Positions 20,700 to 26,069 of a stretch of DNA of 64,000 nt are shown here, in pieces (positions within the stretch are counted from its first letter, which is position 1; each line of letters opens with the position of its first letter). Source of the stretch: Candidatus Pyrohabitans jungbluthii (GTDB lineage Archaea; Hydrothermarchaeota; Hydrothermarchaeia; Hydrothermarchaeales; BMS3B); the NCBI GenBank assembly GCA_002010065.2, contig MTMD02000005.1, forward strand, positions 1-64,000. The letters run 5' to 3'. Made by a program: the position numbers and the translations under genes. A model generated the notes under the pieces. The model searched no databases, was not told the DNA's origin, and was given only the letters and a program-made list of their open reading frames with translations.

Positions 20700-22268
20700 A
20701 TGCAAACCTGGCGGTTGCTGGACACAGGCAAGCGGAGCGCCGCTGAGAACTTAGCTTTGGACGAGGCGCTGCTTCTTGCGAGGGCGAGGCATTCTTCGCC
20801 TAACACGCTGCGTTTTCTTCAGTTCTCGCCCCACGCCGCGCTTGTGGGGTTTCATCAGAGTGTTGAACTGGAGATTCGCGAGGATTTTTGCAAACAGGCG
20901 GGCATAGATATAAACCGCCGCATTACCGGGGGAGGAGCGCTGTACTTCGACGAGTCGCAGCTCGGATGGGAGATTATCGCCCCTCGAGGCTATGAAGCTT
21001 TTCCGAAACGTGTGGAGGAGCTCTACGAGGTGATATGTAAAGGAGCAGTTCGCGGATTGAAAAACCTCGGGATAAACGCAAGCTTCCGTCCGAAGAACGA
21101 CATAGAGGTCAACGGAAGGAAGATATCTGGCACAGGAGGGGCACTTGAGGAGGACGTCTTTCTGTTCCAGGGCACGCTGCTCATGGATTTCGACGTCGAA
21201 ACCATGCTGAAGGCGCTGCGCATACCCACGGAGAAGCTCAAGGACAAGGAGATAGAATCGGTGAAGGAGCGCGTTACCTGCGTTAAGTGGGAGCTTGGCT
21301 ACGTGCCGCCTCTGGAGGAGGTGAAGCGCGCTCTCATGCTTGGGTTTGCCCAGGAGTTTAACCTGCGCTTCGAGGAAGGCGAGCTTACCCGACCCGAAGA
21401 AGAACTTTACGCGAAGCTTCTACCAAAGTTTAAATCGCAGGCTTGGGTTTACGGCGTTCGCCGTGCGCCAGAGCAGCGAGCCACGCTGCGCGCTGCGAAA
21501 AAAACTCCGGGTGGGCTTATTCGTGCCCAGCTAGTGGTGGACGCAAAGAATGAGCGCATTCACTTTGCTCTAATCACTGGCGACTTTTTCGCCTACCCAA
21601 AGCGGGCCATCCTCGACCTTGAGGCTAGGCTTAAGGATGCGAGCGCTGCACCAGAGGAAGTAGAGGCTACAATAAGGCGCTTCTTCTCTGAGCGAGAGGT
21701 TGAGATCCCCGGTGCGAGCGTGGACGACTTTGTTGAGGTGGTGCTGACAGCGCTTGCCAAGCTCAGGCTGAAGAAGTATGGCATCGACATAGAGGAGGCG
21801 AATCGGGTATTTACAGTGGTGGAGGACTTTGAGGGCATTGCTAAGCCAAAGGCGCTGCTTTTACCCTACTGCGCCAAGGCAAAGGACTGCGACCTTAGAT
21901 ATAAAAACGCTTGCAGAAAGTGCGGGCGCTGCACTGTTGGCAGAGCGTATGAGCTGGCGGACGAGCTGGGCTTAGAGGCGATTACCATTGTGAACTACGA
22001 GCACCTGGAGGAGACGCTTCGCAGCCTGCGCGAGCGCGGCGTCGACTCTTTCATCGGCACGTGCTGCGAGAGCTTCTTCATAAAGCATCAGCGCGACTTT
22101 GAGCGCCTTGGCTTGAAGGGGGTGCTCGTGGATATAGACAACACCACCTGCTACGACCTTGGCAAGGTGAGGGAGGCGAAGAAGGGCAGGTTCAGGGAGG
22201 AGACGACGCTTAAGCTTGAACTTCTTGAGAAGGTGTTGAGGTTGAAGGTAGACCAGGGCAACTCCTAA
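20700..22268 (+). CDS. Lipoate-protein ligase fused to a Cys-rich DUF116-like domain
   Basis: NLALDE, RRITGGGA, NDI..GRKISG, GDFF; C-terminal LPYC..C..CxxCGxC..GTCC. Confidence 0.85.
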   Translation: MQTWRLLDTGKRSAAENLALDEALLLARARHSSPNTLRFLQFSPHAALVGFHQSVELEIREDFCKQAGIDINRRITGGGALYFDESQLGWEIIAPRGYEAFPKRVEELYEVICKGAVRGLKNLGINASFRPKNDIEVNGRKISGTGGALEEDVFLFQGTLLMDFDVETMLKALRIPTEKLKDKEIESVKERVTCVKWELGYVPPLEEVKRALMLGFAQEFNLRFEEGELTRPEEELYAKLLPKFKSQAWVYGVRRAPEQRATLRAAKKTPGGLIRAQLVVDAKNERIHFALITGDFFAYPKRAILDLEARLKDASAAPEEVEATIRRFFSEREVEIPGASVDDFVEVVLTALAKLRLKKYGIDIEEANRVFTVVEDFEGIAKPKALLLPYCAKAKDCDLRYKNACRKCGRCTVGRAYELADELGLEAITIVNYEHLEETLRSLRERGVDSFIGTCCESFFIKHQRDFERLGLKGVLVDIDNTTCYDLGKVREAKKGRFREETTLKLELLEKVLRLKVDQGNS

Positions 22269-22412: not shown

Positions 22413-24152
22413 ATGGCAGCGATGGAAGAGGACCACCTGGAGTTCCAGCTGAAACAGGTTAACCCTGAGGAGACGCTGGAGGAGCAGTTTGTTAGAAACA
22501 AGCAGACCTACCTGTTCTACAAGTTAGCGTGGATACAGGAATTCTTTGATAAAAAGAAGCTCGCACAGGAGCTGGCTTTTCTGGTTATGATGATATACAT
22601 CTACGACTTTATAGACCGCCTTGGCATGCGCTTCGCTGATCGAATTCTCAACTTCCTGTCCTTTACAGGCTGGCCACTGGACAAGTTCCGCTCCCTTATG
22701 GGACTCAACCTTGAAGCCAAGATAGCCATGGCTGTTGCGCTTGAGTATCCCGAGAAAACCCAGGAGGAGCAGGAGAAGATTGTAGAGCTGGTAACCACCG
22801 CCTACTCATGGCTCGGTTTGGCGAGGGAGCAGGAGTGGGACATTGCTCGCGTTGTAAAGCAGAAGCGATGGCTGTACTCGCTTCTCAACTCAGAGCCGGA
22901 GCAGAAGCGCCGCGAGCTCATTGAGAAGCTGCGCGAGGAGGGAGGAAAGCGAGTAGAGCTCAACCTTGTGAACATCGGCATAGTGCCCACCGAGCTATGC
23001 CCCAACAGGTGCCGCTTCTGCTTGGCGGCGTGGAAGGCGAGTTGCGAGGAGAGGATAGGGCGAAGCATAAGCGAAGAGGAGTTTGAGGTTATAGCGGACG
23101 AGGTTATAAACTTCGCCGACGAGCACTCGCTCATCGTTACGGTAACCGGCGGCGAGCCGTTCTTAGAGCTGGAACGTGTGCTCTACCTAGTGAAGCATGC
23201 ACGCTCTCGCTTGGATATAACCACCAGCGCCTACTGGGCTCGCGATATTGGCAAAGCTAGGGAGATCTTGGCAAAGCTGCGCGATGCCGCGAAGGAAAAC
23301 CGCAATGAGAACTTCAAGTTCACGTTGCAGGTTAGCCTGGACGCCTTCCATCAGGAGGTGTTCTTTGAGAAGGGCGAGTTTGTGCAGAACGTGCCCATAG
23401 AGTGCATAATTAACCTGCTGAAGCTGACGCAGGAGGAGTTCCCGGAGATTGAGGTGGTGCTTCTTACCAAGCTTACATCCTACGAGGATCCCCTTGCAAG
23501 GCTCATAAAGCTGCTGGAGAAGCAGGGGATGAAGGTCAAGCTTACGCGAAAGGTGACTCAGCCCGGGGTGACTGTGAGCCTCCTGGACGAGGAGCGCAAT
23601 CTCGTAGCGAAGCCTGCGCTGCTCAAGGCTTACCTCGAGTTTGAGGGTACTGAGGGCAAGCCGGTGCTTATCTTCTACACTGTCGTGGAGAGCATGGGCA
23701 AGGCCTCAGCGCTGGACGCCTTCGAGTTTCCTGGATTCAGAGAGCAGGTGCAGGAGCTTCTCAAGGGCAAGAGTGAGATTAAGCTTCCGCTTATAGGCCT
23801 CGAGGTGAGCGACGACGGCAACGTTTACCCTGGGGCACATTCCCTCTACGCGTGGAGCGCTGGCAACCTCCTCGAAGAGGGATTAGAGGATATATATGAG
23901 CGCCTGAGCTATGACCCTCTCATAATCGCCCTCGCCGAAGCACCAGAGAAGATTTTCGCAATAGCAAAGGAGGTGGAGGGCGAACGTATTGACGTGATTG
24001 CCGTGAAGGAGTCCTCACCTTTAGCGGCGGCGTACAAGATTTTAGAAGCCCCCTGGATGCGCCTGTATATCACGCGACGCCTTCTCGGTGAGCCTCAGGA
24101 TAAGGCACAGGAGGAGTACCAGAAATACAAGGAGGAGTACCGCCCAGAATAA
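22413..24152 (+). CDS. Radical SAM protein with a long N-terminal helical extension
   Basis: CPNRCRFC, TGGEPF, VSLDAFH. Confidence 0.85.
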   Translation: MAAMEEDHLEFQLKQVNPEETLEEQFVRNKQTYLFYKLAWIQEFFDKKKLAQELAFLVMMIYIYDFIDRLGMRFADRILNFLSFTGWPLDKFRSLMGLNLEAKIAMAVALEYPEKTQEEQEKIVELVTTAYSWLGLAREQEWDIARVVKQKRWLYSLLNSEPEQKRRELIEKLREEGGKRVELNLVNIGIVPTELCPNRCRFCLAAWKASCEERIGRSISEEEFEVIADEVINFADEHSLIVTVTGGEPFLELERVLYLVKHARSRLDITTSAYWARDIGKAREILAKLRDAAKENRNENFKFTLQVSLDAFHQEVFFEKGEFVQNVPIECIINLLKLTQEEFPEIEVVLLTKLTSYEDPLARLIKLLEKQGMKVKLTRKVTQPGVTVSLLDEERNLVAKPALLKAYLEFEGTEGKPVLIFYTVVESMGKASALDAFEFPGFREQVQELLKGKSEIKLPLIGLEVSDDGNVYPGAHSLYAWSAGNLLEEGLEDIYERLSYDPLIIALAEAPEKIFAIAKEVEGERIDVIAVKESSPLAAAYKILEAPWMRLYITRRLLGEPQDKAQEEYQKYKEEYRPE

Positions 24153-24214
24153 TAAAATTATTCTATTTTGTATTACTATTTCCTAAATTTCCCCATTTCA
24201 ATACGTAATGGCAC

Positions 24215-24227
24215 AAAGTTATAAATA
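24215..24227 (+). promoter_or_regulatory. BRE/TATA promoter of the peptide gene
   Basis: AAAGTTATAAATA about 35-45 nt upstream of ATG 24261. Confidence 0.55.
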
Positions 24228-24260
24228 TCCCACAGAATCAAAAATAGTCAGGGTGATTAA

Positions 24261-24329
24261 ATGAAAATCGTGAAGAAGGAGAAGAAAGTCGCATATGCGA
24301 CCTGCAAGTGTCACAAGAGCTGCATGTAG
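24261..24329 (+). CDS. 22-aa Cys-rich putative RiPP precursor peptide
   Basis: MKIVKKEKKVAYATCKCHKSCM*; GGGTGA RBS, own TATA box, T-tract after the stop. Confidence 0.8.
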   Translation: MKIVKKEKKVAYATCKCHKSCM

Positions 24330-24330
24330 C

Positions 24331-24348
24331 TCTTTTTCTTTTATTTTT
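24331..24348 (+). terminator. Oligo-T tract, probable leaky terminator
   Basis: TCTTTTTCTTTTATTTTT immediately after the peptide stop. Confidence 0.55.
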
Positions 24349-24359
24349 GAGGTGATGGC

Positions 24360-24500
24360 ATGGACTTAACCGAAGAGATTCGAGCGAGAGTGTGCAAGCG
24401 CTGCGACTTCTACAAAGAGGGTGAAACTCTAGAGTGCGCCGCCTTTAAGACGGCAAAGCGCTTGGTTGAGCAGGGCAGGATTAGTTTGGACGAGATATAA
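24360..24500 (+). CDS. 46-aa Cys-containing accessory protein
   Basis: MDLTEEIRARVCKRCDFYKEGETLECAAFKTAKRLVEQGRISLDEI*; GAGGTGA RBS. Confidence 0.75.
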   Translation: MDLTEEIRARVCKRCDFYKEGETLECAAFKTAKRLVEQGRISLDEI

Positions 24501-24513
24501 ACTGCGCATTGCC

Positions 24514-25695
24514 ATGTACCCCAGACTTAAGAACTGTGTGCTTCGCGCAGGCGAGGGCTATTTTCTTTACAACTACGTTGAGGATGAGGTTTACGAGCTT
24601 GACCTCGAAGCGATGGAGCTGCTGCGCCGCTTCACAGGGAAAAACAGCCTCGAAGCTCTTGCCCGTGAATTTGGAGAGAAAGAGGTAAGGGAGGCGGTGG
24701 AGTACCTTCTGAGCGAGGGGTGCCTCGTTGATGAGCGTTGCGAGGATGCGCCGCAAAGCTTCGCCGTCGAGGGCTTTACACCATCGCTGCGCTACCTCCA
24801 GCTTCACATCACAGAGCGGTGCAACTTAGCATGCAGGCACTGCTACCTGGGCGAGAAGTCGCAGGTTGATCTGCCCAAGGAGCTGGCGTTTAAGGCTGTG
24901 GAGGAGTTCTCCAGCTTTGGATGGAAGCTTTTAATCACAGGGGGCGAGCCCCTGCTTTCCCCATACTTCTGGAAGCTGGCAAGCTTCGCTTCTCGCCAAG
25001 GGGTACGCGTGGTGGTGCTCACCAACGGCACGCTTGTCAGCGAAGCTACGGCGAAGAAGCTGGCTGAGCATGTGCATGAGGTGCAGATTAGTTTAGACGG
25101 CATTAAGCGTGGGCATGAAGTGCTACGTGGAGAGGGAAGTTTCGCCAAAGCTGTGCGCGGAATAAGGGCGGCGAGCAAATATATGAGGGTGAGTGTTGCT
25201 ACCATGATTCACCGGGAGAATCTAAAAGAATTCCCGCAGCTTGAGAAGCTTGTTAAAAGCCTGGGTGTAGAGGAGTGGAGCCTGGATGTACCCTCGCCGA
25301 AGGGGAGTCTGCTGGAAAATACAGAGCTTCTTCCACCCCGCGAAGAGGCGGCGCGGATATACTCGAGGTACGGCTTCTCCTCAGGCGTGCATGAGGGCAG
25401 CGCCGACTATGCGTGCGGCGCTCATCTGTGTTCAGTCAATGTCAAGGGCGAGGTGACGAAGTGCGGATTCTTTGAGCGCGGAGTGGGCAACCTTGCAGAA
25501 ATTTCACTTAAGGAGGGCTGGGAGAGGATAGTTGAGAACTACCTGCCAAAGCTGAGCGAACTCGCTTGTGCAGGTTGCAAATACCTCAGCGCCTGCAGGG
25601 GCGGGTGCAGATTCAGGGCGCTAAGCGAGGGAGACTTTTGGGGCAAAGATAGCTTTCTATGCCTTCTCCACTCAAAGATGCACAGTCTTCAGTGA
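24514..25695 (+). CDS. Radical SAM/SPASM peptide maturase with N-terminal PqqD/RRE-like domain
   Basis: N-terminal YFLYN..EVYELD..helices; CNLACRHC; ITGGEP; SPASM C..C..GEVTKC..CAGC..CRGGC..C. Confidence 0.85.
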   Translation: MYPRLKNCVLRAGEGYFLYNYVEDEVYELDLEAMELLRRFTGKNSLEALAREFGEKEVREAVEYLLSEGCLVDERCEDAPQSFAVEGFTPSLRYLQLHITERCNLACRHCYLGEKSQVDLPKELAFKAVEEFSSFGWKLLITGGEPLLSPYFWKLASFASRQGVRVVVLTNGTLVSEATAKKLAEHVHEVQISLDGIKRGHEVLRGEGSFAKAVRGIRAASKYMRVSVATMIHRENLKEFPQLEKLVKSLGVEEWSLDVPSPKGSLLENTELLPPREEAARIYSRYGFSSGVHEGSADYACGAHLCSVNVKGEVTKCGFFERGVGNLAEISLKEGWERIVENYLPKLSELACAGCKYLSACRGGCRFRALSEGDFWGKDSFLCLLHSKMHSLQ

Positions 25696-26069
25696 CCCCT
25701 CATAGCCACTGCTTTCTTAAACTCTTCCCAGCCTATGGCAACATCTAACGTATACCCCTCCCCTGCCATTGCCTTCATCATGTTCATAACCTTCTCTCTG
25801 AGTTTTTCCTTCCCAAGCTCTTCCACCTCCTCATGCTCCTCCGGGAAGTAGTAAACCATGAGCCTCTCCCCCATGTCGTGGTAAAGCAGGGGAATTTCAT
25901 AGCGATTGAGCTTTCCGCACCTCTCACAGGCAGCGATATTGAGTTCCTGTTTGAAGAGTTTACCCTTCAGCTCCGGGTCGAGGGTGACATTTACGCTGTG
26001 GTAAAGCGCAGCCTCAACCTCGCTCCCGCACCACCCGCATTTCAGTTTGTAAACCCCAACCTGAGTCAT
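25689..26069 (-). CDS. CpXC-domain protein
   Basis: CGWCG..SVNVTLDPEL..CERCG..PLLYHD. Confidence 0.8.
   Translation of the reverse strand: MTQVGVYKLKCGWCGSEVEAALYHSVNVTLDPELKGKLFKQELNIAACERCGKLNRYEIPLLYHDMGERLMVYYFPEEHEEVEELGKEKLREKVMNMMKAMAGEGYTLDVAIGWEEFKKAVAMRGH

Follow-up and report, generated by a model that had tools for sequence, protein, structure and literature searches.

A candidate RiPP-like precursor family of 20 to 22 residues encoded beside a radical SAM/SPASM enzyme in archaea and bacteria

The genome of the archaeon Candidatus Pyrohabitans jungbluthii (Hydrothermarchaeota) contains two radical SAM (S-adenosylmethionine) genes that are separated by an apparent gap, and the question that this locus raises is whether the gap contains a gene of its own, and what such a gene might be good for. 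The locus is part of a stretch of 64,000 nucleotides (contig MTMD02000005.1 of assembly GCA_002010065.2, positions 1 to 64,000), which is referred to as the window in the following. Three genes are located there on the plus strand, 3' of the first radical SAM gene encoding 579 amino acids (22413-24152). These are an open reading frame (ORF) of only 69 nucleotides in the spacer, encoding the peptide MKIVKKEKKVAYATCKCHKSCM of 22 amino acids (24261-24329), a gene for a protein of 46 amino acids with three cysteines (24360-24500), and the gene for a radical SAM/SPASM enzyme of 393 amino acids (24514-25695, ATG at 24514), whose N-terminal domain is predicted to resemble the recognition element (RRE) of systems for peptides that are synthesized on ribosomes and then modified post-translationally (RiPPs). 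It was originally predicted that these genes form a candidate archaeal RiPP system. Here we describe that the 69-nucleotide ORF is a real and conserved gene, more than a chance open frame. On balance, we also hold it probable that the peptide belongs to a new RiPP-like precursor family, which receives Cys-directed crosslinks and is tied to copper and thiol homeostasis.

The 69-nucleotide gene is conserved beside the enzyme

The peptide is composed of a basic N-terminal half, in which I3, K5, and K8 are conserved, and a C-terminal core with the pattern Y-x-x-C-K-C-x-K-S-C-M. In the Hydrothermarchaeota it recurs 5' of the enzyme orthologs in 11 of the 14 loci with upstream sequence, and the archaeal form can be written as M-[KR]-I-x-K-[IVL]-x-K-x-x-x-Y-x-x-C-K-C-x-K-S-C-[MASL]-stop. 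The bacterial peptides follow the form M-x-I-[KRT]-K-x-x-[KR]-K-x-x-x-x-C-K-C-x-x-S-C-(G)-stop. Using a refined pattern for peptides of 20-22 amino acids (M-x-I-x-K…C-K-C-x-x-S-C-stop), we found 35 peptide ORFs adjoining the enzyme, which belong to 34 of the 46 family loci of archaea and bacteria, just as a conserved M-K-…-CxCxxxC peptide beside the enzyme homologs had been expected originally. A first, looser pattern gave matches in 31 of the 46 family loci vs. one of 54 control loci, the latter being the surroundings of distant radical SAM/SPASM paralogs, and its only match in the whole window is the ORF at 24261-24329. The peptide is encoded 5' of the enzyme in archaea and Desulfobacterota, and just 3' of it in Nitrospirota, Actinomycetota, and others. 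By eye, without a count, a box similar to GGAGG or GGTGA is seen within 20 nucleotides before the start codon in most of the 35 peptide ORFs. In locus L009, a second match to the pattern (…CKCTRTC-stop, 537-566 of the plus strand) overlaps the end of the small-protein gene in a different frame; it was judged to be due to chance, because it has neither a start codon nor the conserved N-terminal motif.

The variation between the copies is that of a translated gene. In 31 distinct archaeal peptides, 21 of the 22 third codon positions vary, but only 13 of the 22 first and 12 of the 22 second positions, and the codon differences within the core are synonymous in 1782 and nonsynonymous in 1029 cases. 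Invariant in all 31 are K5, K8, Y12, C15, K16, C17, S20, and C21; among these, Y12, C15, C17, and C21 were fixed by the search pattern itself and position 5 was limited to K or R, while K8, K16, and S20 were free to vary. On the DNA level, the core pattern C-K-C-x-K-x-C-x-stop has 34 matches in 18 of 41 related genomes, whereas the reversed control pattern has none. There is hence next to no chance that the ORF is just an open frame that arose accidentally in the spacer and is not translated. Although it is very short and neither it nor its relatives have been called as genes, such an explanation is at odds with the conservation of the amino acids in the 31 distinct archaeal sequences and the bias of the variation to third positions. 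It is equally at odds with 35 copies beside orthologous enzymes in two domains, most of them with a ribosome-binding site, with the complete lack of matches to the reversed pattern, and with the lack of an Rfam family over the region (no match at E<=1 for 23900-24700).

That the peptide has escaped annotation is evident from the databases. The peptide has no match among the NCBIfam and Pfam models, and seven family peptides gave zero families even at E<=10. None of the seven family peptides checked is present in a collection of 15 billion proteins, and they have therefore been missed by gene callers. Furthermore, no description of the peptide, its motif, or the cassette was found in a full-text literature search, which leaves out most subscription journals.

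The signals around the peptide gene were also recognized as originally described, i.e., a TATA-like box, a GGGTGA sequence, and a T-rich tail at the correct coordinates. The BRE/TATA-like box (B recognition element; GCACAAAG TTATAAATA, 24211-24228, plus strand) lies ~33-50 nucleotides 5' of the ATG and may serve as promoter; it consists of the TATA-like sequence TTATAAATA at ~24219-24228, which is ~33-42 nucleotides away from the ATG, and the purine-rich GCACAAAG preceding it. Similar A/T boxes are found 33-45 nucleotides 5' of the start in most archaeal cassette-linked peptide copies. The Shine-Dalgarno-like GGGTGA (24251-24256, plus strand) is located 5 nucleotides ahead of the ATG. Directly after the stop codon follows a T-rich tract, CTCTTTTTCTTTTATTTTT (24330-24348, plus strand), that might act as an archaeal terminator or attenuator and, if it is a leaky terminator as originally suggested, would let the precursor exceed the enzyme. 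It is also present in the loci L002, L003, L008, and L009, and absent in L004, L010, and L011, where the next gene abuts the peptide gene. A hairpin with a U-run that overlaps the peptide stop does not exceed shuffled sequence in stability (z -0.92, not significant).

Enzyme orthologs are present in 15 of the 41 related genomes (E<=2e-123, with the next best match at 8e-29). Thirteen of the 41 genomes have both the enzyme ortholog and the peptide, two have the ortholog with no peptide found (G002, at a contig edge, and G011), five have the peptide with no ortholog found, and in 21 neither of them was found; since these genomes are not independent of each other, the counts are given without a statistic. 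In four genomes without a peptide at the enzyme locus, a peptide is encoded elsewhere (G005, G036, G042, and G045). A scan of GTDB species genomes revealed full-length relatives of the enzyme with 35-45% identity including the N-terminal domain. Among archaea these are found in a Methanobacteriota metagenome-assembled genome (MAG), Geoglobus, and Mnemosynella, to which a homolog search added Methanoperedens. Among bacteria the scan detected them in Nitrospirota (including Magnetobacterium), Desulfobacterales, Geobacteraceae, Actinomycetota, Thermoleophilia, Dehalococcoidia, and Rokubacteria. The designation as an archaeal system was therefore too narrow, as Nitrospirota, Desulfobacterota, Actinomycetota, and others harbor it as well.

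The radical SAM/SPASM enzyme and the three-Cys protein

Alignments and an AlphaFold2 model bear out that the 46-amino acid ORF is followed by a radical SAM enzyme with an N-terminus of strands and then helices and with a Cys-rich SPASM domain. The radical SAM model PF04055 matches the enzyme with 79.5 bits (cutoff 29.5), and the only other Pfam match is Fer4_12. The CxxxCxxC motif (C103, C107, C110) is invariant in alignments of 12 and of 64 homologs, and the same is true for the SPASM pattern with seven cysteines, C301, G312-x4-C317, C352-x2-C355-x5-C361-x3-C365, and C383; a Pfam SPASM model is not listed for the enzyme at E<=0.01. For CrpC and CteB-type enzymes it is argued, in the available part of the respective report, that seven SPASM cysteines leave one iron of an auxiliary cluster open for a substrate thiolate (PMC13692751). 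A SPASM domain with seven cysteines and one free iron would fit Cys-directed crosslinking of the C-K-C-x-K-S-C core.

In the AlphaFold2 model (pLDDT, for predicted local distance difference test, 95.0; predicted template modeling score, pTM, 0.92), the enzyme starts with four short strands (residues 3-29) and three helices (31-67), followed by the radical SAM barrel, and the domain of residues 1-75 is predicted to be RRE-like. The top structural matches are RiPP maturases, with SkfB in first place (Z 27.7, root-mean-square deviation, rmsd, 4.9, 325 residues aligned), followed by SuiB (Z 26.4, rmsd 3.7, 362 aligned), where residues 2-384 of the model superpose on 1-439 of the chain including the N-terminal region of SuiB, and by CteB (Z 25.1, rmsd 3.2, 289 aligned). 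Further matches with lower scores are anSME, ChlB, and PqqE (PqqE with Z 22.2, rmsd 3.5, 260 aligned), and the structural alignments to CteB, anSME, and ChlB extend to residue 393. The full-length sequence profile gave SkfB at 4.2e-27 and CteB at 5.5e-19, with the alignment to CteB beginning at residue 15 and that to TigE at residue 11. As a possible source of PqqD genes for a profile comparison, Pseudomonas and Methylomonas loci from the GTDB scan were inspected, but the neighbors there are not pqqD-like as judged by eye, with no family search.

Despite this architecture, the enzyme does not belong to any family defined so far in these databases. NCBIfam gave 75 weak matches, none near its cutoff, with AhbD as the best (118.9 bits vs. 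500), and with MftC (89.8 vs. 265), StsB (87.8 vs. 625), and PapB (71.2 vs. 340) below it. For PapB, StsB, SkfB, WgkB, DynA, SbtM, ACGX, GeoRSP, geopeptide, MftC, PqqE, and CrpC/TIGR04463 the enzyme does not reach the cutoff, in a comparison that lists the best 25 of the 75 matched families. Three bacterial orthologs are likewise below every NCBIfam cutoff. The enzyme clade is thus covered by no Pfam or NCBIfam family model, and as these databases claim none of the three genes, the novelty that was originally proposed holds.

The 46-amino acid protein, whose gene has its own GAGGTGA upstream, contains the invariant residues C12, C15, F17, and C26 (alignment A3), and its cysteines are flanked by acidic residues (C-D-F-Y-K-E-G-E-x-L-E-C). 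Its model (pLDDT 91.3) is composed of a helix (3-11), a loop bearing the cysteines, and a second helix (27-37). Nothing usable came from a fold search against 48,161 PDB chains (best Z 3.2), and no Pfam or NCBIfam model matches at E<=0.01; sub-threshold Pfam matches appear only at E<=1, none of them PqqD. The protein recurs at all 14 Hydrothermarchaeota enzyme loci with upstream sequence. In this phylum it is present in 14 genomes and the enzyme in 15, the two always being adjacent, and the exception is a fragment at a contig edge. Among the 46 family loci it was not found in 13, mostly of Nitrospirota, and six of these keep peptide and enzyme (L030, L035, L041, L043, L045, and L050); the peptide is therefore the most general partner of the enzyme. 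Genome-wide searches with alignment A3 did not find the small protein in G041, G042, and G044, although for G044 this conflicts with a match of 55 amino acids (E 3.3e-6) that a scripted hidden Markov model (HMM) search found beside the enzyme in L051. The bacterial forms carry an N-terminal extension of ~30 amino acids. Taken together, the phyletic pattern marks the small protein as a lineage-variable and probably accessory partner, obligate in the Hydrothermarchaeota, as far as can be read from the sequences.

A profile search of 1.84 billion representative proteins with the small protein resulted in 156 clusters, and among the 150 listed all but one are 47-188 amino acids long with one or two modules. 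The sole long member among those listed, P0245 (474 amino acids), contains a receiver domain, a PAS domain, and a HisKA_3 fragment, followed by two C-terminal three-Cys modules, and may be a true sensor fusion or an artefact of gene calling. The 90%-identity cluster of the 46-amino acid protein itself contains two RlmN-like proteins; its RlmN-like representative of 373 amino acids has no similarity to the small protein, which is a clustering artefact.

Peptide copies elsewhere and the neighborhood of the cassette

Besides the copies at the cassette, many peptide genes are located elsewhere, and the copy number varies widely between the relatives. Of the 34 core-pattern matches, 24 lie away from a full cassette, and these comprise 21 clear family members, one degenerate copy, and two chance matches; one of the 21 (L119) adjoins a small-protein gene at a contig edge. 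At six loci (L105, L109, L113, L116, L117, and L122) a P1B ATPase gene either is followed within ~15 nucleotides by the peptide gene or overlaps with it at its 3' end, and in two more (L108, L115) the ATPase gene is within ~0.5 kb. The P1B ATPase tested with Pfam has three HMA domains. The copper subfamily model TIGR01511 matches the ATPases with 581-654 bits (cutoff 397), and the model of the cadmium subfamily is also above its cutoff, with a lower score. In G026, a copA fragment, two peptide genes, the small protein, and the enzyme are contiguous on one strand. Other neighbors that recur at the unlinked copies are genes for CcmF/NrfE-like heme lyase, thioredoxin, DsbA-like proteins, PadR regulators, and cytochrome c.

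The genome of Ca. P. jungbluthii has a second peptide copy (G000:C8, ~187594-187662, minus strand; loci L104 and L124), which is flanked by a CcmE-like gene (65 bits, below cutoff) and by genes for a UbiE-type methyltransferase and a thioredoxin-like protein. A copper ATPase gene adjoins neither this copy nor the one in the window. In the loci L112 (G013:C9) and L113 (G022:C261), peptide copies flank genes for a CcmF/NrfE-like heme lyase and thioredoxin, and in L113 a pair of copA and peptide lies 1.2 kb from the copy that flanks the heme lyase gene; these two loci hint at a neighborhood of copper handling and cytochrome c maturation. G034 has five core-pattern matches, of which four are family peptides and the fifth is due to chance. 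Two of the four are beside cassettes (one at a contig edge), one is located after copA, and one beside genes for a thioredoxin-like protein, an oxidoreductase dependent on flavin adenine dinucleotide (FAD), and a PadR regulator.

Around the cassette itself, neither all-vs-all BLAST nor BLAST searches starting from CopA, Ccm, and thioredoxin revealed conserved neighbors outside the Hydrothermarchaeota, except a copA fragment in L015. Conserved protease, exporter, or further tailoring genes were not found in the family loci. The radical SAM gene upstream of the peptide (22413-24152, plus strand), which had been considered as a partner, follows a phyletic pattern of its own. It is present in 16 of the 41 relatives, seven of which have no cassette, was not found in five cassette genomes, and is unlinked to the cassette in G011, G013, G022, and G036; it adjoins the cassette only in L001-L005. 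Its product has an N-terminal extension of ~190 amino acids, matches only the generic PF04055 and Fer4_12, and is not near any NCBIfam cutoff. Two genes 5' of the cassette lies a gene for a protein of 522 amino acids (20700-22268, plus strand), in which a lipoate-protein ligase (LplA-B_cat and Lip_prot_lig_C) is fused to a Cys-rich DUF116 domain at the C-terminus. A connection of the upstream radical SAM gene and this LplA-DUF116 gene to the system, including a LipS-like lipoate link, was rejected (TIGR04133 84 bits vs. cutoff 425), and no link between the LplA-DUF116 gene and the cassette was found. Both genes are neighbors by lineage-specific synteny only. On the other side, a gene for a CpXC-family zinc-ribbon-like protein (25689-26069, minus strand; PF14353, 81.8 bits) is convergent with the enzyme gene and overlaps its last 7 nucleotides.

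The peptide as a probable substrate and its possible role

The type of system is not new, since a radical SAM/SPASM enzyme together with a Cys-rich precursor is known already; the novelty lies in the precursor family together with its three-Cys partner, in its occurrence in two domains, and in the association with copA. As in CteB/SCIFF, PapB-type ranthipeptide, and SkfB/sactipeptide maturases, a predicted peptide-binding-type N-terminal domain is combined with a radical SAM barrel and a 7-Cys SPASM domain, and a short Cys-rich precursor is encoded beside the enzyme. In contrast to these systems, the precursor described here has only 20-22 amino acids with a core of 7-8 residues, C-K-C-x-x-S-C, at the extreme C-terminus, it is multi-copy and copA-linked, and there is an additional conserved three-Cys protein. 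Moreover, whereas SCIFF is typical of Firmicutes, the present family is found in archaea, Nitrospirota, Desulfobacterota, Actinomycetota, Dehalococcoidia, and other bacterial MAGs. SuiB, which acts on SuiA to give streptide, has the same three-domain layout as predicted here and is the best whole-chain superposition including the N-terminal domain. However, the sequence identity is 16-17%, and SuiB makes a Lys-Trp C-C crosslink, while the peptide described here has no Trp. An archaeal precedent is CrpC of Methanococcus voltae (TIGR04463), an RRE-radical SAM-SPASM enzyme that, according to the available part of the report, installs ranthionine thioethers on the adjacent Cys-rich CrpA, and a metal-related role is suspected there as well (PMC13692751). 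CrpA is a repeat protein of 28.8 kDa, and proteins of <100 amino acids were deliberately excluded in that study as far as the same part states (PMC13692751). Our enzyme is similarly an archaeal radical SAM-SPASM enzyme with a predicted RRE-like domain and an adjacent Cys-rich candidate substrate, but one of 22 amino acids instead of 28.8 kDa, and TIGR04463 is absent from the best 25 of its 75 NCBIfam matches, of which the top one scores 119 bits.

In our preferred reading, the 22-amino acid peptide would be the substrate of the adjacent RRE-like/radical SAM/SPASM enzyme. The N-terminal winged-helix (RRE-like) domain may bind the basic N-terminal half M-K-I-x-K-[IVL]-x-K, and this binding would bring the C-terminal core C-K-C-x-K-S-C to the active site. 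There, a Cys thiolate could ligate the iron left open in the first auxiliary [4Fe-4S] cluster, with the seven SPASM cysteines serving two clusters as in CteB-type enzymes, and the 5'-deoxyadenosyl radical would abstract a hydrogen atom from a neighboring residue. One or more intramolecular Cys-directed crosslinks, thioethers most likely, would be the product, and the 46-amino acid three-Cys protein may act as an accessory partner. Modified or not, the peptide would be a metal-binding or metal-buffering peptide rather than a secreted antibiotic. Since paralogs are located 3' of the copper-type P1B ATPase and beside genes for thiol-redox proteins and cytochrome c maturation, a role in copper/thiol homeostasis is most likely. 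That the adjacency of peptide and enzyme is kept across phyla, in two domains, and in either gene order would hardly be expected if the two were not directly related in function.

Several observations weigh against this reading. No modification of the peptide was observed; the data show that the gene is real, conserved, and linked to the enzyme, and they show the domain architecture and the copA neighborhood of the paralogs, from which we infer the substrate relation, the leader binding, the chemistry, and the metal function. The core comprises only 7-8 residues, and thioethers would consume the thiolates that are needed for metal binding. The tightest co-occurrence in the Hydrothermarchaeota is that of small protein and enzyme (14 of 14 intact loci) and not that of peptide and enzyme, and G011 has two pairs of enzyme and small protein, but no peptide by the pattern used. 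Conversely, the relatives G001 (82% complete), G017 (96%), G018 (81%), G025 (89%), and G029 (70%) encode the peptide without enzyme or small protein. The peptides of these five keep an intact N-terminal motif, and therefore the peptide probably has a function independent of the enzyme, unless the MAGs are incomplete. CopA adjacency was observed in the Hydrothermarchaeota only, and none of three unlinked bacterial copies examined adjoins an ATPase. Finally, the N-terminal 88 residues of the enzyme alone gave zero PDB sequence matches at E<=10, and the PqqD model of Pfam matches only one of 20 members of the enzyme family (E 0.021). The domain is thus not detectably PqqD-like by sequence, and of the RRE that was originally proposed it is the predicted fold that stands; the assignment therefore rests on this fold. 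The prediction of a complex of the enzyme with the 22-amino acid peptide and the 46-amino acid protein, the latter as the partner, had a score of 0.00, i.e., 'no answer', and is evidence neither way. The core idea of a peptide maturase is supported by the comparative data, with the modification that the N-terminal half of the peptide may be more than a leader, because the peptide is multi-copy and has copies without an enzyme.

The roles of the two small gene products might also be exchanged, with the 46-amino acid protein being what the enzyme really modifies, or at least a co-substrate, as QhpC is for QhpD and CrpA for CrpC, and the peptide being an accessory, e.g., a carrier of metal or sulfur. 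This would agree with the perfect co-occurrence and adjacency of the small protein and the enzyme in the Hydrothermarchaeota except for the contig-edge fragment, with copy numbers equal to those of the enzyme in G011 and G030, and with the invariant, acid-flanked C12, C15, and C26; in addition, the extension of ~30 amino acids of the bacterial forms could serve as a leader. There is also the precedent of a protein substrate for an archaeal radical SAM/SPASM enzyme, in the available part of that study (PMC13692751). Nevertheless, we consider this exchange of roles unlikely, as the small protein was not found in 13 of 46 family loci, six of which keep the peptide, nor genome-wide with A3 in G041, G042, and G044 (for G044 contradicted by the HMM match in L051). 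It is furthermore predicted to form a compact and confident helix-loop-helix (pLDDT 91) instead of an extended core, and the usual ligand of an RRE-like domain is a short linear leader, which the peptide has.

It is likewise rather improbable that the peptide is an unmodified micro-protein, which as a mini metallochaperone or metallothionein-like Cu(I)/Zn buffer would act together with CopA and thiol-redox proteins, while its adjacency to the enzyme would reflect a shared metal or Fe-S physiology or regulation. The Cys, His, and Met residues at the C-terminus are typical ligands of soft metals, the paralogs show translational coupling to genes for copA-type ATPases, five relatives encode the peptide but no enzyme, and the loci contain no protease or exporter, all of which would suit such a buffer. 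In archaeal cop clusters, the small gene next to copA usually encodes a metal-binding protein, a metallochaperone, according to the available part of the source (PMC7830388). Unlinked paralogs in six loci and the copies in G026 are small genes next to copA like those of CopZ/CopM, which the copy in the window and the second copy of the same genome are not, and the peptide has neither of the HMA or TRASH domains of these metallochaperones of ~70 amino acids (Pfam, NCBIfam), and with 22 amino acids it is too short for them. Against an unmodified buffer also stand the adjacency of peptide and enzyme in 34 of 46 loci from phyla of two domains and in either gene order, the predicted peptide-maturase architecture of the enzyme including its peptide-binding-type N-terminal domain, and the missing copA adjacency in the bacterial genomes examined. 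Still less probable, and in our view very unlikely, is that the cassette makes a peptide-derived redox cofactor in analogy to PqqA/PqqD/PqqE of pyrroloquinoline quinone (PQQ) or MftA/MftB/MftC of mycofactocin biosynthesis. The trio of a peptide of ~20-30 amino acids, a small protein, and a radical SAM/SPASM enzyme is the same, and the C-terminus of the peptide is almost invariant. The MftC model aligns to residues 96-365 of the enzyme, PqqE is a structural match (Z 22.2), the lack of an exporter or protease fits an intracellular product, and one source labels a homolog 'Coenzyme PQQ synthesis protein E'. However, MftC scores 89.8 bits vs. its cutoff of 265, PqqE is not among the best 25 of the 75 families, with a bacterial ortholog scoring 46.1 vs. 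381, and there are no further conserved tailoring genes. In our system the enzyme itself carries the predicted RRE-like domain, and the model of the small protein is a three-Cys helix-loop-helix and not a PqqD/RRE fold. A multi-copy and copA-linked peptide is unlike cofactor precursors, and the chemistry must differ from that of the PQQ and mycofactocin precursors because the core is Cys-rich. As the peptide is multi-copy, copA-coupled, and kept in five enzyme-less relatives, the RiPP-like substrate with a role in copper/thiol homeostasis is therefore ranked first among these readings.

The preferred reading can be taken one step further. The biosynthesis of methanobactins and bufferins relies on iron enzymes (MbnBC/MNIO) and not on radical SAM enzymes, and the peptide presumably resembles the precursors of methanobactins. 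Like them, it is a Cys-rich ribosomal peptide that appears to be linked to copper, here by its gene neighborhood; bufferins are described as RiPP metallophores in the available part of the source (PMC11626156). It is conceivable, although we would sooner doubt than assume it, that the cross-domain peptides of 20-22 amino acids are the radical SAM-made counterpart of methanobactins and bufferins in anaerobes. The enzyme, aided by the three-Cys helper, would then crosslink the C-K-C-x-K-S-C core into a rigid peptide that binds or buffers Cu(I), and this peptide would act together with ATPases of the CopA type as well as with thiol-redox and cytochrome c maturation systems outside the cytoplasm.

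From Firmicutes and Proteobacteria, RiPP systems of the radical SAM/SPASM type are familiar, but to our knowledge few of them have been studied in archaea. The precursor family described here is invisible to annotation pipelines, as no HMM covers the peptide, and it illustrates that spacers beside radical SAM genes can hide conserved genes of <25 codons. The paralogs at the side of copA provide a concrete physiological hypothesis, copper/thiol homeostasis in anaerobes, which is rare for orphan RiPP clusters, and with its three genes the cassette is compact and lends itself to heterologous expression. Should the peptides indeed be the counterpart to methanobactins and bufferins, a metallophore-like RiPP would for the first time be reached by a radical SAM route, and by one that is common to archaea and bacteria.

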